Of a DNA stretch of 64,000 bases, positions 4,356 to 39,928 are shown in pieces (positions within the stretch are counted from its first letter, which is position 1; each line of letters starts with the position of its first letter). The DNA comes from Convolutriloba macropyga (lineage: Eukaryota), in contig NC_134468.1 of assembly GCF_964194025.1 (NCBI RefSeq), forward strand, positions 50,034,001-50,098,000, read 5' to 3'. Position numbers and translations under genes: made by a program. The notes under the pieces are model-generated. The model did no database searches, had not been told where the DNA came from, and saw only the letters and a program-made list of their open reading frames with translations.

Positions 4356-4441
4356 GTGCACAGGAGCTCCAAGAGACCCTGAGAGATGGTGTGTATCTGT
4401 GCAATCTGATCAACTGCATACAAGATGGATCTGTCAAAAAG
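4356..4441 (+). CDS. Host calponin/transgelin-family gene, internal coding exon (CH domain)
   Basis: tttttcAG acceptor ending at 4355. Phase-1 exon reads (x)AQELQETLRDGVYLCNLINCIQDGSVKK, the CH-domain L(K/R)DG.xLC.L.N motif. GT donor at 4442 (phase 0) matches the exon at 30211. Not in the ORF track. Confidence 0.85.
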
Positions 4442-11500: not shown

Positions 11501-12425
11501 GCAAGTTTCTGACGTTCGTGACACATTTATCCTTGAGATTTAAGGACCAAAGAAAGCCAACATTGCGATTGTTTTGTTTCTTGGTTTCAAATTGCGGTTG
11601 AAAATTTTGTCGTGCTTTGGCGTTGCGAACTGGGAGTTGAATTGTTATGGCATTGGCTTGCCGGGCGGATTGGCTGTTGGAGATTTGCGGCTAATTGCGA
11701 TTACAGAGTTCCATGTTGATGTCCAATCATAGGGCTTGGGCGCGGTCTAGAGTTCTCATTCAATTTATTTATCTTGTATGTTTGCGATAAATGGATCTCG
11801 TTTCGAAGTATTTTCTTGATTGCCCAACACACAATACTCTGACAATTCTTTTATTATTCCACAAATGCGCTATGCGCTCTCCTTTATCCTAAATCGTCTT
11901 GAGCAAAACGTAACAATCAGAAGCTGTATTTCGGGGCCGTATAAAAGTTTCTTCAATGAAACGCCATAAGCTCTGCTCAAGTTAGGGTATCTATCACGAG
12001 ATGCGGGTTGAGACTGTTGTTGATTCGTCGTCTCCCTTCTGTTCCAATGCTAAGATATATCATTGATACCGTTTTTCGATCCCCTTGGTTCCATGGTTTA
12101 TCCTCACACATAATTCCAATTTCTATTTGTCGTTGGCAGAGGTTTTCCCCGTTCTTTTCGGGGTGCGTATTTCGAGCTTTTCTTTCCCATTCTGATTGTG
12201 CTGAAGATCCTTGAATAGTGTCGTCGTAGATAGGTTTGCGTGGCAATTGGACATTTTCAGTTTGAAGGCCTACTAGTGTATGGAGAGTGATGTTCTCTTT
12301 TACCAAGAGGGCTAGCTTTAGTTGAGTTCGCCATTTCTCCCACTTGAGAGGAGGGTCTGAGCTTGGCTTCTCGTAGAAAAACTCGATGACTAAAGGGGTC
12401 CGCTTGTGAAAAGCTGGCTGCACCG

Positions 12426-12837
12426 CGTCGTACAGTAATCGAATTGTGTACTGTATATCCCTTGTGTGTTCGCTTAACAATTAAAAATATATTAATTTGC
12501 TTAGCAAATCAACTTACTAATTCTGTTTCGCGATATCTGAGAGTGGATACGGTTGTCAAAGTTAAATGTTGAATTGGGCAACTGTACACGAGAAGCAAGA
12601 TGAACAGAATGAGTTTAGTAGGTACTTGAACACCAATTGAACAAATACTTTAACAGGTACTTGAACAAATAACAGTTGCCAGTGAGGGAAGTTTATTGGT
12701 TGACATACACTTGAAACAATAACTGGTGAAGGGTGTTCGTGAACTGAACTTAACATCTTAAAATATGACCAATAAATTAAGTTCATTGTTATAAATTTTA
12801 CTGAACTAGGCTAGGAATATGGTTATCATGTATGACA
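12426..12837 (-). repeat. Gypsy 5' LTR
   Basis: Similar to 8209-8598; followed on the minus strand by PBS-like (C)GGTGCAGCCAGC and gag. Confidence 0.8.
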
Positions 12838-13510
12838 GGAACCAATCATTAAATACGCAGTGACTGTGTTGAATTTTTCTAAGACTTACAAGCTTTTGGC
12901 GGTATATGCAGTGAAAAAATTTTAGAGTTAAAGATGCATATTTGACCGCTTCTAACTTTCGATTTAATTGGTTTATAAAAAAGGGTAATAAATGCGTTGG
13001 CAGAACTGAACAAAATATTGCATTATCGGTATTCATCACAATTGACAGAATTATTTCTTACATAGGGGTTTTGTTTCTAACCACTGTAAACGCAAACAAT
13101 TGCTCCTTCTCGTTCACTTTTTGTCATACACCCCCTGATATTCCTAGTATTGTGTGCTGGTCATCACTTGACTAGTTCCACTGGGACCTATCGCGATGAC
13201 ATGTCAAGTTGTTTGTTTTTCTTCTGAGTGGCATAACTATTAATTGATTATTTTGAATCAACATGGGTTCTAAAAGCCTTCAGGGTATTCCTTGAAACAT
13301 ATCACTTTTGAGCCTTCCAGTCGTTACGGCGCAGCTAAGTTGTGTATAGAAAAAGATTAACCGTTATCGTAACAATGTATTTATTGTGGTAGCTGACAAG
13401 TAACAAAAAACTCATGTCACGATGTTATCCAATACATGTTTTTCACTATATTGTTTTCACATTCATTGCCAACGCAAGCCTTACAAAAATTCTAATCGGT
13501 AAAGGATGTC

Positions 13511-13633
13511 AGTAGTAAGATAATAGGGTACTAAGATAGGGGGGGTTATCCTTCGAATTAATACGTGTGATAATAGGGGGTTATCCTTGGCGGCGCTACA
13601 TGTAAAACAACGGCCGTGCGTGATACATGTAAA
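13511..13633 (+). repeat. Left terminal inverted repeat (123 bp)
   Basis: Reverse complement of 29941-30065 except a G7 vs G9 run. Internal repeats ATAGGGGG(GG)TTATCCTT x2 and TACATGTAAA x2. Confidence 0.97.
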
Positions 13634-13699
13634 TTGGCATGTAGGTTGTGCGGAAAAGCCTGACTAGAGTCATTTTTGAGTGAGCGTTCATAAAATCAT

Positions 13700-14113
13700 A
13701 TGGCTACAATTGCTACAGTTGATTTGAAGAGTATTCACAAAACTTATAAGGAAATCGAAAAAGAATATTCACAATACGGTGAACGGTTTTTATACTTTTT
13801 AGCTACTTGTCTTCATTTGGATCCTGAGATTGATTTAGATATAGCTTTGAAACTACGACCCTATGGTGGTTTGATTGGCATCGACAATTCAGCCCTCGAC
13901 AAATATTTTAAATCGTTCAAAGTTTTGAGACTGCATGCGATACTTCACGACGCTTCCGGTTTTGTATATGAATATAGTGAAAAGGGTCCAGGCTATTCCT
14001 ACGTATTACCTTGTTCAGTCACAAATGAGTACCTTGGTCATGTGACTGGAATTGCTTTTTGTTTATACGTAAAATCCTTCAAAAATAGTTTATTCAATTT
14101 GCTGGAATGTTGA
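13700..14113 (+). CDS. Polinton accessory protein with HxxxHD motif (possible PLA2/DUF1353-like fold), 137 aa
   Basis: Intact ATG ORF, first gene after the TIR; PYGGLIG...LRLHAILHDASGFVY...GPGYSY. Function is inference. Confidence 0.7.
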   Translation: MATIATVDLKSIHKTYKEIEKEYSQYGERFLYFLATCLHLDPEIDLDIALKLRPYGGLIGIDNSALDKYFKSFKVLRLHAILHDASGFVYEYSEKGPGYSYVLPCSVTNEYLGHVTGIAFCLYVKSFKNSLFNLLEC

Positions 14114-14691
14114 AATCTGGAGCAGTTGTTCTTGATTTTGAAGGCTTTAGAAGTAAAAAATCTGGATTTATAATAAAAGAACTTGCGGTATCTACCAAAA
14201 ATTACAACGATACAATTTCGTTTTTACCTCCAAACTCATTTAACATACTTTCTTCGAGTGAGCAAAGATCTTTCCTGTGGGTATCTAAATTTCTTCATGG
14301 TCTCTCGTGGGAGACAGGAGAGTACCCTTATCATTATTTGCAACAGATTTTTCAAAGTATAGTTCTTCGATTTCCCTTTTCTGATTTTTACGCAAAAGGA
14401 TTAGAAAAAACGGAAACTTTACGGCAGCTGTTACAGAGGAACGTTATCAACTTGGAAACTTTGTTTTGCCCAAAAATTGAACACTTGAAATTATATCGGG
14501 AGACACCAGTTTGTAAGTTACATGCATTGAGTTGCCCAAAACGACAAAGAAGCAAGCATTGTGCCAATAAGAAGGCAAAACTTTTTTACCAGTGGCTGAC
14601 GAATGAATCGTCGGTTGGAGAAACCAGCTCCGTCTCTACTTCAAGTGAATTTGTCTCCAAATTTGACAGTTTACAGTTGCATAACGCCTGA
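14107..14691 (+). CDS. DEDD/DnaQ-family nuclease, Maelstrom/arenavirus-NP-like, 194 aa
   Basis: VVLDFEGF...IKELAV ExoI-like motif; CxxH (CKLH) and HCA near the C-terminus. Confidence 0.75.
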   Translation: MLKSGAVVLDFEGFRSKKSGFIIKELAVSTKNYNDTISFLPPNSFNILSSSEQRSFLWVSKFLHGLSWETGEYPYHYLQQIFQSIVLRFPFSDFYAKGLEKTETLRQLLQRNVINLETLFCPKIEHLKLYRETPVCKLHALSCPKRQRSKHCANKKAKLFYQWLTNESSVGETSSVSTSSEFVSKFDSLQLHNA

Positions 14692-14932
14692 AAATCAGTT
14701 AACGGTTACTCTTATCAAGGAAGAAAAAATTGACACAAGAGGGCAAACAGTTTTAAGAAAACAGCAGATCGTGTGTGCTGGTGCTGAAATAGAAGCTTTC
14801 AAGAAGTATCTTTCTCTACTGGAGTACTTTCAATTGTACCATGTCTTTACAAGAGAAAATGAAAAGGTTGAAACTAACCCCTTTACCTACGCCCAAGCGT
14901 GCAGTGCCAATTCTGATGTCTCTGGACGATGA
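14603..14932 (+). CDS. Polinton hypothetical protein, 109 aa
   Basis: ATG ORF overlapping both neighbours in a compact same-strand block; no motif recognised. Confidence 0.5.
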   Translation: MNRRLEKPAPSLLQVNLSPNLTVYSCITPENQLTVTLIKEEKIDTRGQTVLRKQQIVCAGAEIEAFKKYLSLLEYFQLYHVFTRENEKVETNPFTYAQACSANSDVSGR

Positions 14933-15095
14933 GACTCTTCCCGATGAAATCAAGCAGCTGATTAAAGAGAACAATGTAGAGTCAATTGTTTTTAGAGATA
15001 AACAAGATTCGATGAATGCAAACTATACAATCACTTACAAACAAGGAGACAACGACTCTGGATATGTTTTGTATGAATTTTTTATTGTTGAATAA
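14841..15095 (+). CDS. Polinton hypothetical protein, ~84 aa
   Basis: ATG ORF whose TAA stop lies inside an AATAAA (15091-15096). Confidence 0.55.
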   Translation: MSLQEKMKRLKLTPLPTPKRAVPILMSLDDETLPDEIKQLIKENNVESIVFRDKQDSMNANYTITYKQGDNDSGYVLYEFFIVE

Positions 15096-15147
15096 ATATG
15101 TAACATTCTTGAAAAGCAATTCATTTTTTGAATAATTTTGTTTCAAA

Positions 15148-15423
15148 ATGAGTCAAACCGAAGATCAACTAGATTCGGGCGGAGGCATAACTGACATGGT
15201 TTTTGACGCTGACCACCAAGAAAGACGATCTTGGAGGTTTTGCAATTCGAGATTGCCTCGATCAGAGGTTGTATACTTTACACAAATCTTAATAATAATT
15301 TTTCTTATAACTGTGTCTCTCGCCAAGTTGGTTTTTTTCAGTCTCGACTGTGAAGAATCCACATTTTGGTTTTCACTTCTCTCTTGTACAGTTGGATACG
15401 CTCTTCCAAATCCAAAGTTATGA
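15148..15423 (+). CDS. Small membrane protein upstream of the ATPase, 91 aa
   Basis: Two hydrophobic segments (VVYFTQILIIIFLITVSLAKL; FWFSLLSCTVGYALPNP); stop overlaps the ATPase start (ATGA). Confidence 0.8.
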   Translation: MSQTEDQLDSGGGITDMVFDADHQERRSWRFCNSRLPRSEVVYFTQILIIIFLITVSLAKLVFFSLDCEESTFWFSLLSCTVGYALPNPKL

Positions 15424-16160
15424 ATAAAATTATTTCCACCTCTGACCGGTTGTTCATGGCTGTTTGCGGGCCATCTTGTTGCGGGAAAACTGAGCTCATT
15501 TTCAAAATGTTATTAGTTGGCACTTTTTTCCCAGAATTTCAAACAATTTATTATTTTTATCAGCACGATCAGCCCAAATTCCAATCGTTAGAGAAGAAAC
15601 TGAACATACATTTTAAAAAATTCTCTAATTTTGAACTCATTTCAGAGTTAGACAACTGCCTCCTTGTGTTCGATGACTCATGTGAAGAAATTTTTAATGA
15701 CAAAGAATTTTCAAAATTAGCAACCGCAGGGCGACACAGAAACATCAGTGTAATTTATGTTAAACACAATTTGTTCCAGCAAAGCAGATGGTCCAGAACA
15801 ATTGATCTAAATACAACACATATCATATTGTTTAAATCACCGCGTGACACACAACAGATTACTTTTATTGGTAGACAGTTGAATAACTCTCAATTTTTAA
15901 AAGAAAGCTATGAGCTGGCAACTAAAGAACCGTTTGGTCATTTATTAATTGATTTGGATCCCAAAACATCAGACGTCTTGCGCTACTGTTCAAATATTGT
16001 TCCTCCAGGACCATCAATTTTTTATCTGCCATCAGCTAAAGCCGTTATTACAAGTTTAAGCGATGAGAGAGAAAGAAGTTTGTATGCTGGGGCAGCTGCT
16101 AAACTTATCGGACACAAAACTAAAAGAGAAGATAGAGAGAGCTCCAAATCATTTCATTAA
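15420..16160 (+). CDS. A32/FtsK-HerA-like DNA packaging ATPase
   Basis: Walker A GPSCCGKT, Walker B LLVFDD, GRHRNISVIYVKHNLF. First ATG is at 15420 (the track used TTG at 15366). Confidence 0.95.
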   Translation: MNKIISTSDRLFMAVCGPSCCGKTELIFKMLLVGTFFPEFQTIYYFYQHDQPKFQSLEKKLNIHFKKFSNFELISELDNCLLVFDDSCEEIFNDKEFSKLATAGRHRNISVIYVKHNLFQQSRWSRTIDLNTTHIILFKSPRDTQQITFIGRQLNNSQFLKESYELATKEPFGHLLIDLDPKTSDVLRYCSNIVPPGPSIFYLPSAKAVITSLSDERERSLYAGAAAKLIGHKTKREDRESSKSFH

Positions 16161-16362
16161 ATTCCTTTGCGAATGTTTGCTCAACATTGTCAATGGTAAT
16201 GTTCCAATACGAAAAAGTTTTGTCCAAGGCTATGAAAAATCATTCAGAAAACTATTGTCTAAACAAACAAGTTTGAAAGAAAAGAGGCAACTTTTTGCTA
16301 GAGAAACAGATTTGGTCAAAACTGTTGGTTTCGCTTGTTATCGTTATTTGACAAAATCGTAA
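16063..16362 (+). CDS. Small basic Polinton protein (CECxLNxxxGNVP type), ~99 aa
   Basis: FLCECLLNIVNGNVPI motif of the kind seen in the gene after the ATPase in animal Polintons; TAATG coupling to the next gene. Confidence 0.8.
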   Translation: MREKEVCMLGQLLNLSDTKLKEKIERAPNHFIKFLCECLLNIVNGNVPIRKSFVQGYEKSFRKLLSKQTSLKEKRQLFARETDLVKTVGFACYRYLTKS

Positions 16363-17108
16363 TGCACACCGAAGAATTCATTTTAATTCCAAAACGAATG
16401 TTTGCTTCACATCAACCGGTAAAAAAAGAAGTTTTGGACAATCCCCTTTACAAACAGAAAGCTGCACAGCTGTCTCTTTTGCAAAGAAACCAGTCGAATT
16501 CAATGGAAAAACCAGAGAGAGCAGTTGAACCAGTTGAGACTGCAGACAAAATGATTGAAACAGCAGAAGAGGAAAAAACAGAACCCATGAGCGAAGACAG
16601 CGAGATTGAACCAGTAGTGAAAAAACAAAGAAAAAGCGAAGATTTCGACTCCATATTGTTAGAGCTAGATTTTATGAATAAAAACCAAATCAAAAGATCA
16701 AAAATCATACTTGACTTGATTAACCAATCTGAAACAGTAACTGTAGAGTCGAACGACGTTCTTCACGTAAATAAAGAAAGACTGGGCATTAAAGCTTCAA
16801 CATTTCTGTACAATCTGCAGCAACCAACTAAAAAAATTGACATTGAAAAATACTCCAAAATTTTAATTGCTCTTAATATCTCACCTCATCTTGTTGCAAA
16901 TACACATGCCAAGCAAATCTTGGAAGCCTCGTCTGAAAGTGAACAAGAGTTTTTCCCAAGTAGAGAACAACCCAGTCGGCAAGAGCTCTTCTCTAGTAGA
17001 GAACAACACAGTGGCTCAAAACCAACCCAAAAAAGATATAAAGAAGAACCGGACCAAACGACAGACGAAGAAGAGACCAGTCAGAAGATGTGGTCTTTCT
17101 TTTCCTGA
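16362..17108 (+). CDS. Polinton hypothetical protein, 248 aa
   Basis: ATG at 16362 overlaps the upstream TAA; acidic low-complexity segments; 36-nt internal tandem duplication (QEFFPSREQPSR/QELFSSREQHSG). Confidence 0.8.
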   Translation: MHTEEFILIPKRMFASHQPVKKEVLDNPLYKQKAAQLSLLQRNQSNSMEKPERAVEPVETADKMIETAEEEKTEPMSEDSEIEPVVKKQRKSEDFDSILLELDFMNKNQIKRSKIILDLINQSETVTVESNDVLHVNKERLGIKASTFLYNLQQPTKKIDIEKYSKILIALNISPHLVANTHAKQILEASSESEQEFFPSREQPSRQELFSSREQHSGSKPTQKRYKEEPDQTTDEEETSQKMWSFFS

Positions 17109-18011
17109 AGTAAAAAAATTGGATCAGTTTTATTTAAAAGGACCAGCATCGTATGGAAGCATAAAGCGGTTACAGACGCAAAGCAAGCTCCCTCTAGGTA
17201 AAATTCAGTCCTATTTGGAGACAAAGCCGTCTTTCACAAAGTACCGTTCAATTCGATTTTTCCCAGGCTTAAAGTTTTTGTAAAAGACATCAACGAAATT
17301 TGGTCTCTGGATTTGGCACACGTTGATAAACTGGCAAAGTATAACCGCAATATAAAGTATCTTCTAGTAGCGGTTGATTGTTTGTCAAGATATTTACGAG
17401 TGGAACCAATGAAAACAAAGTACGCAACCGAAGCAGCTGAAGCATTCAAAAAGATGATCAAAAACAAACAACCCGAAAAAGTATGGGTTGACGATGGTAC
17501 AGAATTTCTTGGAGCATTCAAACAATTGTGTACCAAACGTGGAATTCATTTATATAATACCTTTAGCGAAAAAAAGTCAGCTTTTGCAGAGAGGAACATT
17601 AGATCTCTCAAAAAGATAATTCATCGGTATCTTGAAGAAAAGTGGACCTATAGCTACATTGACCAATTAGACCAATTTGTGAAAACAATCAATTCAAGAG
17701 TCAATCGAATAACAAAAACTGCTCCTAACAAAGTTACAAAAACGGATGTGCCACGACTAGTGTCATTGGCAGCACAAACAAGCTCAACCCAGAAGCCCAA
17801 GTTTTACATTGGAGACTTTGTGAGAGTAGTTAAAAAAGATAAAGCTTTCAGGAAAAGTTATATGCAATCATTCACAGACGAAGTCTTTGAAATAACGGGA
17901 ATACCGACATTAAGCCCACCAACATACACCTTAGCCGACGCAAACAAGGAACCAATTCAAGGAAAATTTTACCAACCAGAATTACAACTTGTCAGGCTCC
18001 CTCTTGTTTAA
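16906..18011 (+). pseudogene. Retroviral-type (RVE, DDE) integrase with a frameshift near 17257
   Basis: N-terminal part LDQFYLKGPASYGSIKRL...TKYRSIR is in one frame. FPRLKVFVKDINEIWSLDLAH...VWVDDGTEF...AFAERNIRSLK...GKFYQPELQLV is in the -1 frame. The only upstream in-frame ATG is 16906, so the start is uncertain. Confidence 0.9.
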
Positions 18012-18012
18012 A

Positions 18013-18897
18013 ATGTCCACCAACCGGTTTGAAGACGAGTTTACAGTTCACGTTGTTTCATCAGCTTCAATGGAAATATTTGATACAAATACACTTGCAT
18101 CATTTCGGAATTTTTTCAGTGATGAAATTCAACTTGCAGGTGATTGGAGAGTGGCGCTAAGTGAAATCATATTCCCAACCAAAATAGAAAACATAGTAAA
18201 CGGAAATCTAATTGCGTACAACTTAAAAGACTTTGAAGATTCCCAAAAGATTTCTTCGGGAGCCAATGTTATTTCTAGACCTTATAGTGGACAACAATTT
18301 AGTTTTATGCCAGGAACCTTTGATACAGTGGCTCAACTTCTTGCTACAATTAAGCGCACAATTGGCCTGCCCCATTTTTCATTCAGAGAGTTGAAGAGCT
18401 CTGGGAAATATGAAATTTTATTTGGCAAGTATGAGGGAATTACGTTTCCCAGCGAAGAAATTCCCAGCATTATTGGATTTAAGGGTATTCCTGACGGCAA
18501 TGGAATACACATTGGGTACAAAATGATTCCCAATGCGAACAGGTTTATGAAAAGTGATGATACGAAAGCTTTTTATGGGGAGTTCCCAGCTGACCTTTGT
18601 GCTGGAAAACATCTAATTTTCATATACACCAACATAATTGAATACCAATACGTCGGTGACACTAAGGCTCCTCTTTTGCGAGTCATTGATTCAAAACAAC
18701 GTCTGAAAAACGGTAGTGTTTGTGAGCTTGAACCCACTCATAGGATAGTTTTTACAAATTTAGACTATAAGAAGCTCCTAACTAACACAATTCAATCGAT
18801 TTCAATCGAACTGAGAACGGAAACAGGACAATTAGTTCCCTTTTCGGGAACTGGAAAAGTTATTCTAACACTACAATTCAAAAAATTTTCCCCTTAA
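18013..18897 (+). CDS. Minor capsid protein (penton, single jelly roll)
   Basis: FTVHVVSSASMEIFDTNTLASFRN...WRVALSEI and FIYTNIIEYQYVGDTKAPLLRVI are typical of Polinton minor capsid proteins; ATG at 18013. Confidence 0.9.
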   Translation: MSTNRFEDEFTVHVVSSASMEIFDTNTLASFRNFFSDEIQLAGDWRVALSEIIFPTKIENIVNGNLIAYNLKDFEDSQKISSGANVISRPYSGQQFSFMPGTFDTVAQLLATIKRTIGLPHFSFRELKSSGKYEILFGKYEGITFPSEEIPSIIGFKGIPDGNGIHIGYKMIPNANRFMKSDDTKAFYGEFPADLCAGKHLIFIYTNIIEYQYVGDTKAPLLRVIDSKQRLKNGSVCELEPTHRIVFTNLDYKKLLTNTIQSISIELRTETGQLVPFSGTGKVILTLQFKKFSP

Positions 18898-19320
18898 ATG
18901 GATTCTTATTATGCCAATCAAGCAACGTCTTTGCCTCACTTCTCTGGACATTATCGTCAAAGAGGAAGTGGTTTTGGAGCTCTAGCTGCAGGCATTGGAC
19001 GTGTTGCGCTACCTTTAGCACGTCGTTTCATTTTGCCTACAGCGAAGCGTATCGGGAAAGAGCTATTGAAACAAAGTGTTCCAGAGATTTTGGATGTAGT
19101 CGGAAGCAAAAAATCTCCTAAACAGGCGTTTAAAAATACAATCTCAAAAACTGTCAAAAAACAGACAGGAGGATCTCGCCGAAATACTTCACGTCGGAGG
19201 AATTCAATACGAGTCAAGCCACAGAAAGCAATCAACAAACGCAAAAAAACCATTTCAACGCACAGAGCTCCAAAAAGAAGTCGGTCAGATTTTTTTGCCA
19301 GAGTGAACGATGATCGCTAA
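18898..19320 (+). CDS. Basic virion core / membrane-active precursor protein, 140 aa
   Basis: YYANQA...QRGSGFG followed by an amphipathic helix; QTGG then an Arg/Lys-rich tail; lies between the two capsid genes. Confidence 0.85.
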   Translation: MDSYYANQATSLPHFSGHYRQRGSGFGALAAGIGRVALPLARRFILPTAKRIGKELLKQSVPEILDVVGSKKSPKQAFKNTISKTVKKQTGGSRRNTSRRRNSIRVKPQKAINKRKKTISTHRAPKRSRSDFFARVNDDR

Positions 19321-20620
19321 TTTGTTACCATCAGAGGCAACTCACAGTTCTTTGGATTTGTTCGAAAAACCTTCTCTCTTAGTAACTTTCGATGGTAGTT
19401 TTTGTCAAAAGGTGGGCCCAGTCTACAGTCCAAATGGACCCATGTTAGAATTTGAAGTCGCCGGTGACCGAAATAATTTTATTGACTTACAGAAAATTTT
19501 CTTGGAAGTGAAATGTAAAATTGTCCAGTTATCAGAAGCTGATTTGAGATATGACGCAGGAGCAGCAACAGATGTTACGAAGACAGATGCTCCCTATTTT
19601 TGCAATAATGTTTTACATTCACTCTTCTCTGACTGTACAGTGTCTGCTAATGGACTAAAAATTTCAAACGCTAACGGAAACTATGCTCATAAAAGTTTTA
19701 TTGAAACAGAATTTTCACATAACAAAGATGCAAAAAACACCTGGTTGGCATGTCAGGGCTATTCCTACGAAGAAAATCCAGGAGCGTTGTCAACTGTAGA
19801 AGTGAACAGAAGGAAAGCCCTAGTGAGGCAATCGGCTGAGTGCACATTTTACGGTAAAGTTGCAGTTGACTTTTTCACTTGTGACAGACATTTGCTAAGT
19901 GGTGTGACACTTCGCATTGCGTTTAGACGGTCAATAGATGATTTTGTTATAATGTCTGACGATGCAGCCAAGCACTACAAAGTAAAAATTGTCGAAGCTA
20001 ATTTATATGTGCGCAAAATGACATTGAACGATGATGTCGTATCGGCTATAGAAAAGACTTTGTTAAAAAGTCCAGCTTCGTATCCCTACTTGGAGACTCT
20101 AACAAAAACATTTCTGGCATCAACGGGTCTCCACAGTTGGAAACAAGAAGATATTTTTGCCAGAGAACCGATTCGTAGACTAGCAATTTGTCTGAACACT
20201 AACGAAGCGTTTCTTGGTAACAACAGACAAAATCCATTTAATTTCCGCAAATTCGACCTTGAGCAGATTTATATTTACCGAAACGGTTTACCTGTGGCAG
20301 ACAGTCCAATATCAACAAGTGATGACAAACGTCTCTACTTTAATACAATATCGGATTTAGCTTACATCGACAATGGTCATGGAATAAGTTTGACAGATTA
20401 CCCGAACCATTTCATAATGGTTTTTGATTTGACCAGTACCCAACAAGCATCCCATGATTTTATTCACCCTGAGCTTACAAATTCGTCAATTTCTATTGAG
20501 TTGAAATTTTCTGCGGCCCTACCGAACAATATAGAGATTTTCATTATTGGCGAAAAAGCGAGCACAATTTTTGTTGATAGTGCAAGAAGAGTATCAAAGA
20601 ATCACATTCTGACAAATTAA
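19310..20620 (+). CDS. Major capsid protein (double jelly roll), 436 aa
   Basis: SSLDLF, NNVLHSLFS, NPFNF, FDLT motifs; size and position typical of Polinton MCP; intact. Confidence 0.93.
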   Translation: MIANLLPSEATHSSLDLFEKPSLLVTFDGSFCQKVGPVYSPNGPMLEFEVAGDRNNFIDLQKIFLEVKCKIVQLSEADLRYDAGAATDVTKTDAPYFCNNVLHSLFSDCTVSANGLKISNANGNYAHKSFIETEFSHNKDAKNTWLACQGYSYEENPGALSTVEVNRRKALVRQSAECTFYGKVAVDFFTCDRHLLSGVTLRIAFRRSIDDFVIMSDDAAKHYKVKIVEANLYVRKMTLNDDVVSAIEKTLLKSPASYPYLETLTKTFLASTGLHSWKQEDIFAREPIRRLAICLNTNEAFLGNNRQNPFNFRKFDLEQIYIYRNGLPVADSPISTSDDKRLYFNTISDLAYIDNGHGISLTDYPNHFIMVFDLTSTQQASHDFIHPELTNSSISIELKFSAALPNNIEIFIIGEKASTIFVDSARRVSKNHILTN

Positions 20621-21054
20621 TGATGGATGAAGATGATATTAATGATTTAATACAAGGCTGCAAAACTCTTAAATACAAATTTCATGGCGTGTTTGCGGCC
20701 AACAACTTTCCGGAAAAAATGAACAGAAACAGCTTCCTTATTGTTAATGCAGCAACTGCTGAAAATATTGGCACCCACTGGTTACTTTTATGCAGAAAGA
20801 ACAATCAACTTCTGTTTGCCGATCCCCTTGGTCGGTCCATTTCATCGTACAAACACCTATATCAAAGAATCATTTCTGTTGGCAACAATCATAATATCTA
20901 TCAACTCTTGGAGAATCAACCAATTCAAAGTGCAAACTCTAAACTTTGTGGACTGTTTTGTATTTATATTGCTCATTTTGTTTTCAATGCTCAAAAACTT
21001 GTAAATATTAGCGATAATGAATTGATTCGTTTTGCTTTTCATATGATGTTCTAA
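20620..21054 (+). CDS. Adenain-like cysteine maturation protease, 144 aa
   Basis: GTHW (His), ADPLG (Asp), Q...CGLFC (oxyanion Gln and catalytic Cys). Confidence 0.95.
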   Translation: MMDEDDINDLIQGCKTLKYKFHGVFAANNFPEKMNRNSFLIVNAATAENIGTHWLLLCRKNNQLLFADPLGRSISSYKHLYQRIISVGNNHNIYQLLENQPIQSANSKLCGLFCIYIAHFVFNAQKLVNISDNELIRFAFHMMF

Positions 21055-21085
21055 CCTTACTAACTTGAAAAATTTATTTTTTTTT

Positions 21086-21781
21086 TCAAAACTTTACTTT
21101 TTCTTCATACACAAAGCGAACACTCAATAAATCAGAATCAATATTCAATTTTCCATATCCACTCAAAAAAATATCCATAATTTGACAAAAAGCACCAGAA
21201 TGAGGACCATACAAAATTGTTTCAACTCTGCGTAAAGTTTCACTATTGACAAAATCAGTTTGAATTTGTTTTGATGGAGGCCGGCAATTGTAGATAGTCT
21301 TTTGGGTAACTACTGGCATCTTGGCACTCGTTTTGGGATTGACATTTGTTTGTTTTGCAGAGCTGCTTTTCGATAAATTGTTGTTGTTGTTAGCAAAAGC
21401 TGGTAGTCGTTTGCGCACTGACTGCGAATCAATTTTTTCTGCAGAACTGTTGAAATCGATTGCTAATTTAAGCTTTGAAAACACATCTCCATTAGTCTCC
21501 AAATTTGGTGCAGTCCAAAACAGGAACTTAAAAGCTGTATAAACACAAGGCACAGGAAAGCTTTGAAATCGTTTCAATGTTTCGTTTTCAAAAGTAGTTG
21601 TATCAATCAAAACGTGATAATGGCTATTTACTAAATTGCAAAATTCGGAATCAAAATGTGCACACACTGCATAACAATTTCCAATTGAAAAGGTAGGTTT
21701 CTCTTCCACAATGAGAAATTTGAACTGTTTCTGAAATTGTTTAAAGTAATTTGGAGAACGCTCAAACATCGCTTCAACCAT
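21086..21781 (-). CDS. Polinton accessory protein with HUH-like motif (HYHVLI), ~231 aa
   Basis: ATG at 21781 overlaps the stop of the PC4-like gene; CYAVCAH...SHYHVLIDT...VYTAFKFL; minus-strand AATAAA at 21073-21078. Confidence 0.75.
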   Translation of the reverse strand: MVEAMFERSPNYFKQFQKQFKFLIVEEKPTFSIGNCYAVCAHFDSEFCNLVNSHYHVLIDTTTFENETLKRFQSFPVPCVYTAFKFLFWTAPNLETNGDVFSKLKLAIDFNSSAEKIDSQSVRKRLPAFANNNNNLSKSSSAKQTNVNPKTSAKMPVVTQKTIYNCRPPSKQIQTDFVNSETLRRVETILYGPHSGAFCQIMDIFLSGYGKLNIDSDLLSVRFVYEEKVKF

Positions 21782-22091
21782 CGTTGTTGACAACTTCTTT
21801 TTGAATTTTTGGTTTCTTCGCTGGTGGTGGTTTTGGCGATGACTGCTGATCAGCCACTGAGTTCTTTATTTTGCTAGCTGAACTGACCAAATTTTCAAAT
21901 TCTCCAAGAGTTAACGAAATTCTCTGTTCAAACTCGTAATCGTCTGTTGCTTTTTTGAACAATTTCAGAAATACATATGTCCCTGTCCTTTCATAGGTTT
22001 TCAGCGTTGCCCTGATTAAGCGCTTATCAGTTTTGGAAATATCGAAATAACAATCTCCAAACTCAGTGTCTTTAGTGGACGTGAAAGGCAT
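21774..22091 (-). CDS. PC4/Sub1-like ssDNA-binding protein with C-terminal NLS, ~105 aa
   Basis: Beta-rich core ending ISLTLGEFENL, resembling the PC4 GISL..EW..L signature; PPAKKPK NLS-like motif; first ATG at 22091. Confidence 0.75.
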   Translation of the reverse strand: MPFTSTKDTEFGDCYFDISKTDKRLIRATLKTYERTGTYVFLKLFKKATDDYEFEQRISLTLGEFENLVSSASKIKNSVADQQSSPKPPPAKKPKIQKEVVNNDG

Positions 22092-22311
22092 AGTGTGCAA
22101 CTTGTTTTATTACTTTCAAGTGTTATAATGTGTAAAAAGTACAATTCAATGGGAGCGGCAAGTTGGGATTAAACAAGTGTCGTCAAACTGCCTAATTAAA
22201 TCCAAATGATTTGTGAATACAGTCTCAAGTACGCCTATGGCGTACTTGAGTCTGTCTGTTGTTCAAGTATTGTATAATTAATTTCAGCTGTGACCTTAGA
22301 TAAGACAAAAA

Positions 22312-22690
22312 AACATATGTGACGCTAGGTGTGTACTTGAACCAGCAGTGCAGTGTACACTGTTTATTATATGTGGACCATATGTTTATAATTTGGAACA
22401 CATGTGACCCTAGTGTGTACTTGGACCAACGGTGCAGTGTACACTGTTTATTGGAATTGTCCATATGTTTATAACTTGGAACACATGTGACCCTAGGTGT
22501 GTACTTGGACCAACGGTGCAGTGTACACTGTTTATTGGAATTGTCCATATGTTTATAACTTGGAACACATGTGACCCTAGGTGTGTATTTGACGTCATTG
22601 TAGTGTACATTGGTTATTGGAATTGACCATATGTTGAACAGATGTGACCCTAGGTGTGTATTAAAATTAGAAACACATGTGAACCTACAG
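22312..22690. repeat. ~84-bp tandem repeat array rich in palindromes (about 4.5 units)
   Basis: GTGAC(C)CTAG anchors at ~22319, 22404, 22487, 22571, 22644. Core units contain CAGTGTACACTG, CACATGTG, CCTAGG, CATATG and TTATAA. Confidence 0.9.
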
Positions 22691-23056
22691 CAGTAGGGAA
22701 ATTTTGATAAGATTAAACATGTACCAGTGTACAATGAAATGCTGATAATAAAATGCGTTCTAGATAAGAATTGAGTTAGTACACACAATAGACTGTATCA
22801 ACCCATGTATAATAACTTAGAGCATATAACAGAGCATATACACTACCAAAAACAAAACCAAATTTGACCCCACACATAAATTGTCGAATTACACGTTGTA
22901 TAATACAACTTTAGAACTAGGTATTCATTTTCTTTAAACCTTGCGTTCAGTGCACTTTGCTTTCTTTCAAGAGTTCGTTACTAGACAAACATTATTTTTC
23001 AACCGTCTTTTATCAAATTGGTTTTAGTTTCTTTCTTAAAATTTGTGCAAAAAATT

Positions 23057-23752
23057 ATGTCAGTTCAAATACTTGCTGAATCTGTTATTTCTTTCGAGCG
23101 AACATTGGTTTATCAGACAGTGTTCGAAAACTTTGTTGTGCTGATTCAACAGAAGAGACAAGGTGATGTTTGGCAAACTTACCAGCACTGTTTGATACCT
23201 AAGCTTTTTATTAACGCAATTGCTTCTTTACCAGAGAAGACAGAACCAGCAGAATGCAGTGTTATTACATCAGGGGGACATTTACCTCCAAAAGCGTTGC
23301 CAAAATTTCAACATCTTGAAATGGAGTCATTACAAGACGACGTTAAACGAGTTTTGTTTCGTTACGATTGCGACTGTGTGCCTCTGTTTGAAAACCAGCT
23401 AGGGGCTTATCAAGCTTGCGAAAATTTAGGTGACATGTGGGGCATAAAGTCATCACCTTACTCCCCAGAGAACCAATCGCAATTGGATTCAGTCAGCTTG
23501 CCAGTAACACCAGCAGTTGATCCGAGTCCCAGTTTGACACCGACATCTAGTCCATCTCTCTTTGCTGGAATTCACAAGAACAATTCTACCGCTCTGCTCA
23601 GTGAAAACCAGTTTGATACAGCGTTACTTTCAGCTACACAATTTCAAAAACCAGAACCAGCACGTGTTTTTGGCGTTACAGACACGCCAAAGATTTGCAA
23701 TGCACCAAAGAAACGGCTACCTGAGAATTCTTTAATGGACTTATTTGATTGA
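23057..23752 (+). CDS. Polinton hypothetical protein with Ser/Pro-rich C-terminal half, 231 aa
   Basis: ATG at 23057 (the track used TTG at 23018); AATAAA at 23816. Confidence 0.7.
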   Translation: MSVQILAESVISFERTLVYQTVFENFVVLIQQKRQGDVWQTYQHCLIPKLFINAIASLPEKTEPAECSVITSGGHLPPKALPKFQHLEMESLQDDVKRVLFRYDCDCVPLFENQLGAYQACENLGDMWGIKSSPYSPENQSQLDSVSLPVTPAVDPSPSLTPTSSPSLFAGIHKNNSTALLSENQFDTALLSATQFQKPEPARVFGVTDTPKICNAPKKRLPENSLMDLFD

Positions 23753-25421
23753 CTTGAAAAACTTTGATGAATCACCACCATTTTATATTGTGAGACGCTA
23801 ACTTGATTTTGTTTCAATAAAGTGTGATGTCAACTTTTTGAATTTAACTTTTAATATCTGTTTTGTAGATTTAAATCTGCTGAGCCAAAGAAATTATAAT
23901 TTCTCTACTGATCAAGTTCGAACATGTTCAGAAGGGGTTTTAATTATGACGTAAACATTCGTTTCCTAACAAACCCTCAATTATTGCAACTACTGTGACG
24001 TGGTGTGAGAATTATATCCATAAATACTTTTCTCAATCTACGAAATTTTTGTTAGCATTATATTAAAAATGAAATTTAAGAGATATAGCCATAGGTTAGA
24101 GTAAGCGGTATTGACGCTAATGACATGCTAACTTCATACCACAGCTGTAGCATGGACTGAATTCCAATTTCAATTCATAAGTTGAAGAAATGTTGAAAAA
24201 AAAAGAAAAACAATCAAAGAAAATTTTCGAAAAAATACCTTTCAAACGTCAATTTTTGAAACTTATCTCAAAAGATGCGCTCTCCAGCTTACACTAGAAT
24301 CACCTCCCATTTGTTACTTGGGAATCAAGTGAAAGAAAAAGAGCATGTTTGTTAAAAAAAATCAAAAAAAAGTCAATAAAAAAATTTTTTTTTGACACAT
24401 GACCTCTGACATTTGACCCTAAAAAAGAGGGCTCCAAAAAATACTTGGGATGAAACTGATTGTTTAGTAAGCCTCAGCATACTCTAAAGTACAAAACATC
24501 TCATCACACTCGTCAAATTTTACTCATCCGTTATGGAGATAATTAGCCCCTAATTAGCGACTAATTAAGGGTTAATTAACCTAATTACTAATTACTGAAA
24601 AAAAAATTTCAAATTTTTGCAACGGATTTTTTATCACCGCTTGATGCCTGACATAATTGCTCATAAGCATCATCATCAAAAAATGGCTCCTTCACCGATT
24701 TTCAAAACATCTGGCAATCAATGTCACATTAACATCTGGCATTAATTAGCATATGAAGTACCCTAAGGAAAGATGTTAGATCGGCTTTCTTCACATTTTT
24801 GGACTTGATGGATCCTCAGTGCAAATTTATCTCATAACAGCTGTCATCAAAAAAGGCCTCAGAAAAAAGACACATGTTTATGTCATGTAATTGTCATGTA
24901 ATTGTTAATTAATGACTTGATTGACAGAAAAATAAACTTTTTTTCTGTTTATTTTTGAGCAATTTTTTCATATGGGTCCTATGTTTTTCGGCACGGGGAG
25001 CATTTTTGCTCATCACACTTAAGAACGTAGGACAACTCTAACCACCCGTAATTGAAAATGCATAAAATAGCGCATTTTATTACAATTTTAAAAATTATCA
25101 TGTTTTTCCAGCTTCTCCAAAAACGTTTTTTGAAAAAAAAAATGACCAGCAATACTCTGTAGGGCTCCTTATGGTGATATATTCTGGCATAGGATTGCAA
25201 TGGAGATTTGAAAACACATCTTTTTTCTCTCATAACTAACAAAATTTCGAAATAAAGGTAACCGCCAAAACCGACCAATCAGATTGCAGCATTTTGAAAT
25301 TTTGAATTTCGCGCACAGAAATTACATTCGTGTTTCAGTTTTGGTGAGCTTAGTCATTTCCGAGTTATTTACTTGTTATCAAAGTTCTGTTAGAATTTGA
25401 AATTCATCAAAACTATTAGAA

Positions 25422-28400
25422 ATGGTCTATTCATGCAACTTCTGTGACGCTACGTTTAGCACTCGTGGGAACCGTTCAAGACATCAACATAAATTCCATC
25501 CAGACGATGTTGGCCTTCCTGTTTACAACTGCTCCCTATGTGTGTTCAATTCACGGAAACTGTCTGAATTGGAACAGCATATGCGAACTTGCCACTCGAA
25601 GTTTACAAACTGCTGCCGATCGTGCTTCATGGGATTCAATGATGCGCACTTGTTTGCGCAGCATATGAACTCCCTTCACTCGCTGCCGGTATTTGGACCT
25701 GAATACCAACCGAAAGAGGCTACAGCGGAGACAGCCTTCAACGGTGTGTTACAAACTTATGAAATTGTCAATAACACAGCTGACAGAGATCTTGAGAGCT
25801 TCATGCTCAATCAAAGATCTGCAATTGCAACGCTAATTGAGCAAAGGCTGAGCCAAGGACCACAGAAAGTACAATTTGCGGTAAAAGTACAGTTATTGAA
25901 GCTGCATCAAGATGAAAACGCAACCGAAACGGAGGAGCGCATTGAAATTTATGCCAACTCCCTCATGACGCCCATTTACGTAGAGGGTCTCACAAACGAG
26001 TTGTACTGGAGCATGGTGGAGAAAATGATGGCTGTCTTGTCTACGTTTGCTTCATCTGGAAGTGGTTGAGTTGTTGAAAAAATAATCAAACTTGACATCA
26101 AATTTGCCCGCTACCGACCAATTCGCGGCTCATCCTATCTTGCCTTACCCCATAAGCTCGCAAACTGTCGCGGATTACTCAACATTCGAAACCACGACGA
26201 TGCCAATTGTTTCAACTATTGCTTCGTGGCAGCGTATCATGCGCATCATGGAATCAGTCTTGATAGAGATGACAGGAACTATCATATTGACAAAACATCC
26301 CCAGCAACATATCAGCAAGAGAACATTCACCAACCTGTAGGCGAATTTGAAATGCCAATGGCATTTGAGCAAATGAAAGCCTTTGAAACCCTCAATGATG
26401 TGGCAATCAACGTCTTTGGTTACGATAAAGGACAACTTTACCCTCTACGAGTCTCCTCTTTTGAATCAGATTTTGTTATGGATCTTTTACTTCTTTATGA
26501 TGCCGACATTTATCACTATGTTCTCATTACTGACCTTGTGAAAGTCGTTTGTAAAGTTAGAGACCTGAAATTCAGATTTGGTTATCGCATTTGTCGTAAT
26601 TGTTTCTGGTTGTGTCGTGATGGACTGGAAAGCTATAATATTCATACTGAAAATTGTTATCTAAATGCCCCTGCAGTTATTCAAATGCCATCACCAGATA
26701 AAAATGAATACAAGTTCTCAAATTTTTCAGCTACGTGGTTTGTTCCTCTGGTCATTTATTTTGACTTTGAATCTTTTCTCATACCCGTCGCTGGATGTGA
26801 TGCAGCAACTGACCAATCATCAACACGCGTGATTGAAAAGCACGAGCCATGTGGATTTGCTTTGGCAGTTGTTGATCATCACTCGAACGTTCCCTATTTT
26901 CATCATGTGGACAGCTCAGAAGATTGTATGGGCAACTTTGTTCGAATGCTGCATTCGTTAGCAAGGGACATACATGAACGCAAAAAACAGTTTCCTTTCT
27001 ACAACGGAAGTCGGAGAAGCTTGGACAAAAAGAGCGCTACACACTGTTGGATATGCGAAGAACCATTTGACAGCGATCTTGACCCCGAAGAGAGCATAGA
27101 TTTAGACCATTGTCATTTTAGTGGCCAATTCTTGGGCTGGGCACACGAAAAGTGTAATCGAGCGAGACGGTATGTCAATTTTACGCCTGTGGTCGGTCAT
27201 AACATACAAAACTATGACTTACATCATATTTGTCTTGCTCTGAACAACTGTGAGTCTACCACAACAATAAAAATCATTCCGTCAACAGATGAGAAATACA
27301 TATCAATGACATTCGGAGTTCTGATTGATACTATTACAACTCAAGAAGGAAGAACACAAAAAATTTACGAGTATTTAAGATTCATCGATTCGTACAAAAT
27401 GATGAACAGTTCGCTGGAAAAACTTGTAGAAATTTTACCTGACACACATTTCGATATCATGAAAGCAATGTTCCCGTCGGTTTCCGAATCAAACGCACAC
27501 TTACTCAAACAAAAAGGATATTATCCTTATACTTATGTATGTGATCGTACAAAGTTTTCTGAGCAATCTCTACCACCCCTCTCAGAATGGCGCAATACAT
27601 TAGAAGGCGGAAAATTGGCTGTTAGTGAAGAAAATTTAGGTCATGCTAACCAAATGTGGACGTTATTGGGGTGCAAAACTTTACAAGACTATCATGACGC
27701 ATACCTTAAACTTGACTGCGCACTATTAGCTTGTGTATGTGAGTTTCACCGTGAACTTAGCTTTCGAACATACAAACTCGACTGCATGCATTTCTACACT
27801 CTCCCCAATATGGCAAAAGAAGCGTCACTAAAGATATGCAGGGCAAACATTGAGCTGATGACAGAGCGAGAACATTTGGACATGATTGAACCGGCAATAC
27901 GAGGAGGAGTAACATCTGTTTACGAGGAGCGTCATTTTGTTGCAAATAATAAGTATTTATCGGATTACCGGCCCTCTGAGGAGTCAACTTTTGCGCTCTG
28001 TGTAGACGCAAATAATCTCTATGGAGGTGTCATGCAAATGGACATGCTACCAGTGGGGGAATTCGCCTTCAACGTAGAAATTACCCTTAACGAAATCCTC
28101 AATACCCCTAACGACGCTTCAGTTGGTTATTTTCTTGAAGTAGACTTAAATTACCCTGTCCACTTACACGATGACCACCGAGACTTTCCGCTTGCCCCTA
28201 CCAAAGAAATTGTTCAAGATGATTGGTTGGGCGAATATCAACTTGAGCTAAAAGAACAACACAGATTACCCAGCTCGAATGTTAAAAAGTTGCTTCAAAC
28301 GCTATTCGACAAAAAGAACTATGTATTGCATTACAAACTGCTCAAATTATACGTTAGTCTTGGATTAATTGTTGCCAAAGTACACCGTGTCCTACAGTTC

Positions 28401-29771
28401 AAACAAGCGAATTGGTTAGCGCCCTATATAACACTCAACAGTAATAAACGTCAAGCCGCCAGCAATAAATTCGAAGAGAACTTTTATAAGCTCATGAACA
28501 ATGCAGTATATGGTAAGAATTGCGAATCGAAACGCAGACGAAGTAAGCTTACCATTGCACGAGATGCTGATCAAGTTCTGAGTTCCATTTCAAAGTTTGA
28601 GTTTGATCGGTTCATGATATTCGGAGATAACCTGGCCGCATTGTCATTCCGCGCTAGAAAGATTTATTGGAATACCCCAACAATAATTGGAGCAACTATA
28701 CTTGATCTGGCCAAGTATCAAATGTACAGTTTCCATTACTTCATAATGCGCGCTCATTTTGATTGTCGTTTGTTATATAGTGACACGGATAGTTTACTAT
28801 ATAAAATCAGGAGTACAGACTTTTATGAGGAATTAGCAAGAAAGCCCGCTTCAGTTGTTAGTGAATTCGATTTCTCCAATTATCCGAATGATCACTATTT
28901 ATACAGTACGGAAAATAAACGGGTAGTCCTCAAGTTTAAGGACGAATTTGCAGGAGATTTTATTACGGAGTTTGTGTGTTTAAAGCCGAAACTATACTCA
29001 ATACTCTCAAAAAGTAAGTATTCTTTGTCTTTTCTAATGCATGTTAGTTCTATCTTTAAATTACAAAGGTTGTTAGTAGGCTCCTGAATGGTATTAGTTT
29101 TATTATTATATACATAGGGGTTAGTAAACATATAAAGACTTGATTAAAGGCTTTTTTTCTCTTTAGGTTGTCGAAAACTTTCGGCTAAAGGAGTAACAAA
29201 GGCCGCTCAACAACGTCTCCGGCATGATGATTTCTTGAGCACACTGACAACAGGGAACGTGTTTCGCACTGAAAACACAAGAATAATGTCCGATCATCAT
29301 GTATTGGAAACTGTTACTACCAACAAAATATGCCTTTCAGCGTTCGACAACAAAAGGTTTATTCTACCCTGCGGAACAAAAACTCTACCCTTTGGACATT
29401 ATGAGACCGTTGATTGTGGTGTGGATGAAATTGATTGGGGTAGTGATGATATTCAGTGGGATAATGACAGTTACTCAAACTTACTTCTCAGCTCTAGTCC
29501 AGAATGGGATAATGACTTTGTAGTGTCCCAAACTTCCTCAACAGCCGCTCTCTCAGTGCCAGACTCCACCACCAGCTCTTGGGAGACTCCCGACCCAGGA
29601 TTAGTAGTAACTGAGCAGATAACTGAATCTGATATTGATACTGACGATATTGCAGATATTGACGCCAGTTCCAGTGAAAGCTCCTCTCCTGACAACCCCT
29701 TCATAAACTTTGAAGCTGAAGAAGCAAGCAGCAGCGAAGAAGAACCAGCACGCAAAATAAGACGGCGCTAA
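25422..29771 (+). pseudogene. polB: Protein-primed family B DNA polymerase; two exons (25422-29013, 29167-29771) and one premature TGA at 26067-26069
   Basis: Three C2H2 fingers, then GSG*VVEK continuing in the same frame. OTU-like NCF...HYVLI segment, ExoI YFDFES, EndoVII-like CWIC...DHCH...CN, ExoII HNIQNYD, PolA DANNLYG, PolB KLMNNAVYGK, PolC YSDTDS. After splicing: SAKGV...DNKR...TLPFGHY. Confidence 0.95.
29014..29166 (+). other. Spliceosomal GT-AG intron in pPolB (153 bp, phase 1)
   Basis: GTAAGT donor; CTTTTTTTCTCTTTAG acceptor; in-frame stop inside. Removal gives KPKLYSILSKSCRKLSAKGV. Confidence 0.9.
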
Positions 29772-29940
29772 TGCCAATTTAATTGCATGCAATTTTGGTG
29801 AAACTGCGTGTAGTAATACACAGTGTAAATATTTAATTTGTTTGGAGTGTTTAGTTTGGTTTCAATTCAATCTTTTCTTACAAATCTAACAAACCGGAGA
29901 AAGGCGCAAAGGGAAAGGAATAAAAGCGGAAGAAAGCTAG

Positions 29941-30065
29941 TTTACATGTATCACGCACGGCCGTTGTTTTACATGTAGCGCCGCCAAGGATAACCCCCTA
30001 TTATCACACGTATTAATTCGAAGGATAACCCCCCCCCTATCTTAGTACCCTATTATCTTACTACT
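29941..30065 (-). repeat. Right terminal inverted repeat (125 bp)
   Basis: Reverse complement of 13511-13633; followed by the GATGTC TSD. Confidence 0.97.
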
Positions 30066-30210
30066 GATGTCAGAATTTTGATGCAGTTTGGTTATCGGTG
30101 GTGAAATTTGTTTTCACCGCAAGTTAGTTGCACTAAAAAATTTGGTGCTAGTTTTTGCCCATGAAAAGAGTGCAGCATCACTTTGTTTTTGGATGATGTT
30201 ATTTTCACAG

Positions 30211-30370
30211 ATAAACAAGTCCAAGATGCCCTTCAAGCAAATGGAGAACATCGGAAACTTCCTGGATGCATGTGCGAAATTTGGGGTGAAGCAGCACGAT
30301 ATGTTTCAGACAGTAGATCTTTACGAGGGCCAGAACATGTCACAAGTAGTCAATGGCATTTACGCTCTAG
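30211..30370 (+). CDS. Host calponin/transgelin-family gene, coding exon (C-terminal half of CH domain)
   Basis: ttttcacAG acceptor; INKSKMPFKQMENIGNFLDACAKFGV...DMFQTVDLYEGQNMSQVVNGIYAL(G). The donor appears to be GC at 30371. Confidence 0.92.
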
Positions 30371-30579
30371 GCTAGCTATTAATTTGGATTCAGTAAGCTC
30401 CCAATTGCACTAAAACTGATTTTTGTTAGTCAATGGCTTAACTATACATGACGGAGCACTAATGCTGTCTGTACTATCCTTCTATGCAAAATTTTGAATT
30501 AGCGTGGAAACTAAATTAAATTAGAAACTAGGTTAAGTAAATTTTGATGGTAACAAATACATAAAACTCAACAAGGAGG

Positions 30580-39743: not shown

Positions 39744-39928
39744 GACGAAGAGCTCAGAAGGTTGGCATGCCAGGCATTGGTCCGAAAGAGGCAGAGGAGA
39801 ACAAGAGAGAGTTCACCGATGAACAAATGAGAGCTGGCGATGGACTGATTGGACTGCAAATGGGTTCAAACAAAGGCGCCACTCAGGCCGGTCAGAATTT
39901 TGGAAAGACCAGGGCTGTCATTGATTAG
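39744..39928 (+). CDS. Host calponin/transgelin-family gene, last coding exon (calponin/CLIK repeat)
   Basis: tttacAG acceptor ending at 39743; (G)RRAQKVGMPGIGPKEAEENKREFTDEQMRAGDGLIGLQMGSNKGATQAGQNFGKTRAVID-stop, with a single calponin repeat. Confidence 0.93.

Follow-up and report, generated by a model that had tools for sequence, protein, structure and literature searches.

Polintons, Mavericks and adintoviruses (Polintoviricetes) are described with target-site duplications (TSDs) of 5-8 bp, usually 6, and sizes of 13-25 kb (bioRxiv 2023.08.22.554363, PMC8097293), with a major capsid protein (MCP) and a penton as capsid hallmarks (PMC4028283), and with a pPolB polymerase whose domains run in the order TP-vOTU-EXO-PALM, TP being the terminal protein (bioRxiv 2024.03.18.585575). 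Intact vertebrate Mavericks are intronless (PMC8097293), as are the core genes of the nematode (Caenorhabditis) Maverick, which has introns in its cargo genes (bioRxiv 2022.07.12.499685). Here we describe an element of this kind in a 64,000-nucleotide stretch of contig NC_134468.1 (positions 50,034,001 to 50,098,000, forward strand; hereafter the window, with positions counted from its first letter). It is a real, complete, young, non-autonomous Polinton of a known class, and its pPolB gene is interrupted by what looks like a host-type spliceosomal intron common to a Polinton lineage. This lineage-wide intron is the part worth following. The rest is mostly ordinary: animal genomes often contain full-length Polintons with light damage, and an intact capsid module beside broken enzymes is no more than chance would give.

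The ends of the element, none of which has a strand, are as follows.

13505..13510: left TSD, GATGTC
13511..13633: left terminal inverted repeat (TIR), 123 bp, starting with (AGT)2, the end motif given in PMC8097293
29941..30065: right TIR, 125 bp, from alignment to the left TIR
30066..30071: right TSD, GATGTC

The element thus spans 13511-30065 (16,555 bp) with termini AGTAGT...ACTACT, that is (AGT)2//(ACT)2. Two identical hexamers at fixed positions would arise by chance with a probability of 3.7e-4. The TIRs are the sole inverted repeat of at least 40 nt within the whole window; their 123 aligned bases are identical, and a G-run of 7 on the left is one of 9 on the right. No further pieces of this element were found in its flanks. 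With 0 substitutions in 123 positions, TIR divergence has a 95% bound of 2.4%. The copy is judged young because of this bound, because the nearest listed sisters are 97-99% identical and because identical proteins occur on up to 14 contigs; all sister comparisons were made at the protein level. The family has a high copy number: clustering at 90% groups 367 sequences for the MCP, and the penton cluster has 142, these sizes being counts of distinct protein sequences including fragments rather than of loci. A preliminary description of this DNA had called it a complete and recent Polinton with a perfect 6-bp TSD and TIRs identical save for one homopolymer length, and all of this was borne out by the TSD, the TIRs, the end motif and the six core genes.

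The core genes lie in the following order.

15420..16160, + strand: A32/FtsK-like packaging ATPase, 246 aa, with a Pfam Pox_A32 match and Walker A/B-type motifs
16906..18011, + strand: rve integrase by Pfam rve match, with a frame break near 17257-17259
18013..18897, + strand: penton (minor capsid protein), 294 aa, from its AlphaFold2 (AF2) fold and Foldseek
18898..19320, + strand: basic 140-aa protein, putative genome-condensing core protein by position and composition
19310..20620, + strand: double jelly-roll (DJR) MCP, 436 aa, from its AF2 fold and Foldseek
20620..21054, + strand: adenain-like maturation protease, 144 aa, with a Pfam Peptidase_C5 match and His/Asp/Gln/Cys motifs
25422..29013, + strand: pPolB exon 1, from Pfam DNA_pol_B_2, PHROG and a motif scan
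29014..29166, + strand: predicted 153-nt phase-1 GT-AG intron, with a GTAAGT donor, pyrimidine tract and AG
29167..29771, + strand: pPolB exon 2 by homology, with a conserved C-terminal polymerase region, probably the thumb, and an acidic tail

Like Polintons, Mavericks and adintoviruses, the element combines a 6-bp TSD and TIRs with (AGT)2 ends, pPolB and an rve integrase with an A32-like ATPase, an adenain-like protease, a DJR MCP and a penton, and among the features used to define Polintoviricetes the TSD, the TIRs with end motif and size, PolB, rve, DJR MCP, penton, and ATPase with protease were found, the TP-vOTU-EXO-PALM order of pPolB being putative. Its size of 16.6 kb compares with a vertebrate Maverick mean of 16.9 kb (PMC8097293). 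It differs from typical Polintons and Mavericks in carrying two inactivating lesions, and its core genes all lie on one strand, whereas most vertebrate elements have a two-module layout. With two lesions and one intron it falls outside the definition of an 'intact' Maverick in PMC8097293, which asks for open and intronless core ORFs (open reading frames). An OTU domain together with a PF03175 match defines the PolB of Alpha adintoviruses (Starrett 2021, PMC8502044); the pPolB described here has a PF03175 match and a putative N-terminal OTU-type region, the latter by motif only.

The ORFs for ATPase, penton, core protein, MCP and protease are all open. The ATPase matches Pfam Pox_A32 (PF04665) with E 4.7e-5 (23.4 bits against a cut-off of 22.8), the protease matches Peptidase_C5 (PF00770) with E 1.5e-7 and the integrase matches rve (PF00665) with E 2.5e-9. 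The MCP gave nothing significant in a sequence search against PDB and needed a fold search: its AF2 model (72 aligned sequences, pLDDT 85.8) has the Sputnik MCP as best Foldseek match (E 1.7e-16), and the PBCV-1, iridovirus and mavirus major capsid proteins are also among its matches. The penton gene sits one gene upstream of that of the MCP, and its model (pLDDT 94.0) is closest to the mavirus penton (E 7.7e-10) and then to adenovirus penton bases. We could thus agree with the earlier identification of these open genes. For the core protein the earlier statement stands in part: the ORF is open, and the label, which has no database support, is suggested by its position and its 24% Lys+Arg. This 140-aa protein also has two Gly-rich motifs, and the profile searches (Pfam, NCBIfam, PHROG) returned no match to it.

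Exon 1 of pPolB matches Pfam DNA_pol_B_2 (PF03175) with E 4.1e-8, and a sequence search of the pPolB core against PDB gave nothing significant. Scanning for sequence motifs, and following the domain order of bioRxiv 2024.03.18.585575, we located C2H2 fingers, a putative terminal-protein region, the premature stop described below, vOTU-type Cys and His motifs (a region with no Pfam match), the exonuclease motifs Exo I-III, the polymerase motifs Pol A-C and KxY, in this order. An HNH/endonuclease VII-like motif lies in the exonuclease domain at 27105-27160 (Endonuclease_7, E 0.005, below the cut-off), and such inserts have been reported for other Polinton pPolBs. A scan of GTDB for related DNA yielded 38 pattern matches and one locus, the distant pPolB-like L001:3001-4743, at 27% identity on the contig of a bacterial metagenome-assembled genome; this is possibly a eukaryotic or viral contaminant, and the uninformative match was not used.

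Directly after KxY, the segment 29014-29166 interrupts the polymerase. It contains an in-frame stop, is in phase 1 at both ends and has a GC content of 27% compared with 37-44% in the flanking exons. Beyond it, exon 2 is 55% identical to the C-terminus of the RefSeq protein XP_075239384.1 and 33-36% identical to uninterrupted relatives. With the segment removed, 8 residues separate the KxY Tyr from the next motif, as in the uninterrupted P0249 and P0255 (P0250 has 9). GT-AG ends, a pyrimidine tract and a phase-compatible join that restores homology are all present, as expected of a spliceosomal intron. A group I or group II intron was rejected, there being 0 Rfam matches in the window and a segment that is unstructured (z +1.7) and folds worse than 193 of 200 shuffles.

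The same interruption recurs in related families. We examined 143 pPolB-like proteins, 52 of which contain the KxY motif, and these represent the family in the window and ten others. Six of the ten are interrupted at the same site (P0241/P0242/P0244, P0245, P0246, P0247, P0248 and P0253); these are 43-73% identical to the window, end 11-26 residues after the motif and, at the same codon, have residues that a GT donor could encode, a comparison of proteins from which an intron is predicted. The remaining four (P0249, P0250, P0255 and P0267) read through. The RefSeq model XP_075239384.1 (P0403), from Convolutriloba macropyga, is joined at the intron site, and its cluster includes two ORFs called from genomic sequence that end 17 residues past the join. 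In phylogenetic trees the window and five of the six interrupted families form a fully supported clade with P0253 outside it, so that two changes are needed; a single clade, and with it a single origin of the intron, was neither demonstrated nor rejected (p-AU 0.121). Two further pPolBs, P0256 and P0257 (map ~28740-28757), depart from the others at a position common to both, ahead of motif C, where their residues are compatible with a GT donor; a sister clade may thus have another intron site.

The annotated Convolutriloba macropyga families (XP_075239384.1 and MCPs named 'F54H12.2-like') share the pPolB interruption site with the element. They supply its nearest named MCP relatives, at 83%, 64% and 62% identity, and pPolB clusters ~68-73% identical; they differ from it in belonging to another family and are annotated as uncharacterised, and neither Polinton nor Maverick is mentioned in the genome note of this species (PMC13650328). 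From these MCP identities of 62-83%, the host is likely to be an acoel. The predicted GT-AG intron in pPolB sets the element apart from the vertebrate (PMC8097293) and Caenorhabditis (bioRxiv 2022.07.12.499685) elements with their intronless core genes. Spliceosomal-type introns also occur inside dinoflagellate maverick-polinton-like proviruses (bioRxiv 2025.03.18.643946), but the introners there are mobile and mostly secondary insertions, in contrast to one fixed site across families with pPolBs 43-73% identical to that of the window. Cryptophyte polinton-like viruses have group I introns. The intronless state of vertebrate Mavericks was reportedly already given by Kapitonov and Jurka in 2006, whom PMC8097293 cites for it. 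In the open-access literature searched, neither a conserved intron in pPolB nor Polintons from acoels were described; older descriptions, Repbase and supplements could already record the intron, and its novelty is provisional.

Screens that demand intronless ORFs would score intron-bearing Polintons as broken. The intron junction would also provide a simple marker, by reverse-transcription PCR or RNA-seq, of nuclear Polinton polymerase expression in a very high-copy family, and activity could thus be tested in a little-studied animal lineage. As the intron is fixed after KxY, unspliced RNA would yield a polymerase without its C-terminal ~200 residues. The third intron of the P-element offers an analogy for splicing control in germline or stem cells. 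A tentative idea, which we consider improbable, is that a lineage of animal Polintons has its polymerase controlled by host splicing: cell-type-specific splicing of the fixed intron could act as a gate on genome replication, with independent expression of the intronless capsid operon.

The preliminary description had reported that a nonsense codon interrupts pPolB and a frameshift the integrase, and both were found. The pPolB lesion is a substitution that creates an in-frame stop at 26067-26069. Five of the 15 listed proteins of its own cluster (132 members) span this site and all five read through; among wider homologs, 22 of 28 have a sense codon and the other 6 begin downstream. Reassignment of the codon in an alternative genetic code was rejected, since this codon terminates six other ORFs of the element and Trp is encoded in the standard way 13 times in the pPolB exons. 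Because the premature stop precedes an intron, nonsense-mediated decay would be expected. In the integrase, the frame breaks near 17257-17259, upstream of the DDE motifs, and relative to its sisters the window lacks more than one base there. Here 12 of the 15 listed cluster members span the site in one ORF (the other 3 are the upstream gene only), and 107 of 162 homologs match both frames of the window within one protein. The nearest in-frame ATG, at 16906, lies ~200 nt inside the preceding ORF, with none at the start of the conserved region; relatives share this overlap, and in 5 of the 162 homologs the upstream gene is fused to the integrase in frame. The earlier count of two lesions was correct; it left unmentioned a third interruption of pPolB, which by sequence criteria is the intron and not a lesion. 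With both enzymes damaged, the copy is probably unable to replicate or re-integrate by itself, in line with the earlier suggestion that it could not replicate alone.

That the virion module is intact and the enzymes are broken, a contrast implied in the preliminary description, proved uninformative. Coding bases total 13,532, with 5,120 in replication genes and 3,795 in virion genes, so that by gene length the probability of two random lesions both hitting replication genes is P=0.14, and that of both sparing the virion genes is P=0.52. This length-weighted test gives no support to selective retention of the capsid module, and the capsid ORFs are probably intact because too little time has passed since insertion. 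That selection keeps the module, as in host domestication, is hardly credible: the five virion ORFs are open and show no private change at conserved columns, but the TIRs and accessory genes are equally intact and there are hundreds of related MCP sequences. Departures at conserved columns number 4 in the MCP, 3 in the penton, 1 in the integrase and 4 in pPolB; all are common to most sisters and none is private. A stop-free single high-scoring segment pair covers at least 90% against the window in 201 of the 209 listed family proteins (16 of the 209 being the window's own), and the 8 exceptions are single sequences with breaks at different places.

A recently integrated complete Polinton provirus with an intron-split pPolB, disabled by two lesions, is very probably the correct overall explanation. 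Some observations weigh against it. XP_075239384.1 also skips ~50 residues in the exonuclease region and, being a prediction, is no independent proof of splicing. Damage is frequent among the sisters (of the 14 listed for each protein, 7 MCPs are full length and 11 ATPases are not), and two of them have been fused at an A-run, so the source data may contain indel errors. Finally, cluster P0148 (18 members, known by cluster only) starts at the downstream ATG of the integrase piece in the window, and the frameshift may thus be common to other copies. The second point, together with the G-runs of 7 and 9 in the TIRs, would suit an autonomous copy whose two lesions are sequencing or assembly errors; this is quite unlikely, as both lesions would have to be errors, that in pPolB is a substitution and that in the integrase is not the typical one-base homopolymer slip. 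The start shared with P0148 would fit a non-autonomous subfamily that has these lesions in common and depends on intact relatives for spread or packaging in trans; mobilisation in trans had been proposed in the preliminary description. Intact ends and virion genes, sisters with a full-length integrase and whole pPolB exon 1 sequences in the related P0241 and P0246 clusters would allow it. We nevertheless consider such spread possible but unlikely: 0 of 15 listed sister pPolB pieces start or end at the stop, 0 of 15 cover exon 1 whole (the longest has 762 aa against 1,197 codons), and silencing is plausible, as planarian Polintons are piRNA targets (PMC8532177). Very unlikely, too, is a natural split between terminal protein and polymerase of the kind known from adenoviruses and from one coral polinton. 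The stop does lie 38 codons ahead of the vOTU-type motif, and such splits are described in bioRxiv 2024.03.18.585575, but the spanning sisters and most homologs read through it and the next ATG (26352) is downstream of the putative catalytic Cys.

If the copy is a recently integrated provirus, as we prefer, its family would have expanded strongly in an invertebrate, probably acoel, genome, and its rve integrase would have placed the linear genome in a host calponin/transgelin gene, within an intron of 9.2 kb, and so produced the 6-bp TSD observed. The copy would then have acquired, or inherited from its parent copy, the pPolB nonsense codon and the integrase frameshift, and so presumably lost self-copying and re-insertion. 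In the active lineage, the host spliceosome would splice the pPolB mRNA so that the protein gains its final ~200 residues; this suggests transcription by Pol II in the nucleus. Under the established model of the class, the TP-vOTU-EXO-PALM polymerase would carry out protein-primed replication from the TIR ends, the ATPase would package the genome into capsids of MCP and penton, and the protease would mature them.

Sisters also conserve ten other ORFs, which have no assignment from Atlas, Pfam, NCBIfam, PHROG or PDB. They are listed here with a tandem repeat that lies between divergent accessory genes.

13700..14113, + strand: 137-aa ORF, same length in 13 of 14 listed sisters
14107..14691, + strand: 194-aa ORF, same length in 14 of 14 listed sisters, no database match
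14603..14932, + strand: 109-aa conserved ORF, same length in 11 of 14 listed sisters
14841..15095, + strand: 84-aa conserved ORF, identical protein on 14 contigs
15148..15423, + strand: 91-aa ORF with two hydrophobic stretches, ahead of the ATPase, identical protein on 13 contigs
16063..16362, + strand: 99-aa ORF, matched by sister P0346
16362..17108, + strand: 248-aa conserved ORF overlapping the integrase 5' region, no Pfam or Atlas match
21086..21781, - strand: 231-aa accessory ORF with sister matches
21774..22091, - strand: 105-aa accessory ORF, identical protein on 8 contigs
22312..22635, no strand: 84-bp tandem repeat, 3.9 copies
23057..23752, + strand: 231-aa accessory ORF with sister matches

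Alpha adintoviruses have PLA2X as a hallmark, together with a virion module of the Mayetiola class (the other class being Terrapene); the 137-aa ORF gives no significant match in Pfam, NCBIfam, PHROG, PDB or Atlas. We take its His-Asp motif to be reminiscent of the phospholipase-like accessory genes of adintoviruses and, likewise unconfirmed, the N-terminal acidic motif of the 194-aa ORF to be reminiscent of DEDD nucleases. The 91-aa ORF probably encodes a small membrane protein. The ORFs at 14603 and 14841 were considered as a frameshift lesion and this was rejected, as sisters carry the same two ORFs. The tandem repeat is possibly a regulatory region. A further 1.67 kb upstream of pPolB (23753-25421) has no convincing ORF and contains TAATTA-rich palindromes at ~24518-24600; it may be either a promoter region or a decayed insert. 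A bacterial promoter scan of the left end was empty, which is irrelevant to this element.

The preliminary description did not include the host gene around the element, which is of the calponin/transgelin family.

4356..4441, + strand: host exon upstream of the element, CH profile 25-44 (Pfam CH, E 6.5e-4, below the cut-off alone)
30211..30370, + strand: host exon downstream, CH profile 51-102 (Pfam CH, E 1.9e-9; PDB transgelin, E 9.7e-12)
39744..39928, + strand: last coding exon of the host gene, calponin repeat (Pfam Calponin, E 6.1e-11)

The first two exons join in phase 0 across an intron of 25,769 nt, which shrinks to 9,208 nt once the element and one TSD are taken out; the 5' exon of the gene was not found. 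The element could disturb host transcripts, because it ends 145 nt ahead of the host acceptor, is co-oriented with the gene and has 16 AATAAA signals on the host-gene strand. It is also a testable case of a 16.6-kb same-strand intronic insertion affecting a host gene. The exon 30211-30370 is followed by a GC donor (GCTAGC, 30370-30376) with an in-frame stop just after it, which may indicate a GC-AG intron or a damaged donor or gene.

The same host intron contains a direct repeat pair (7796-8598 and 11936-12837, 76-80% identical) that may represent the long terminal repeats of an old retrotransposon. A search of the window for tRNAs found none. At 43686-52010 there is a ~4-kb tandem duplication, with blocks 85-98% identical, that contains satellite arrays of 142-176 bp. 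Decayed reverse-transcriptase fragments (Pfam RVT_1) lie at 33895-34242 (- strand) and 54136-54633 (+ strand), and ORF pieces at 1287-3670 (- strand) and 51739-56723 (+ strand) are presumably remains of BEL/Pao retrotransposons, which they resemble.

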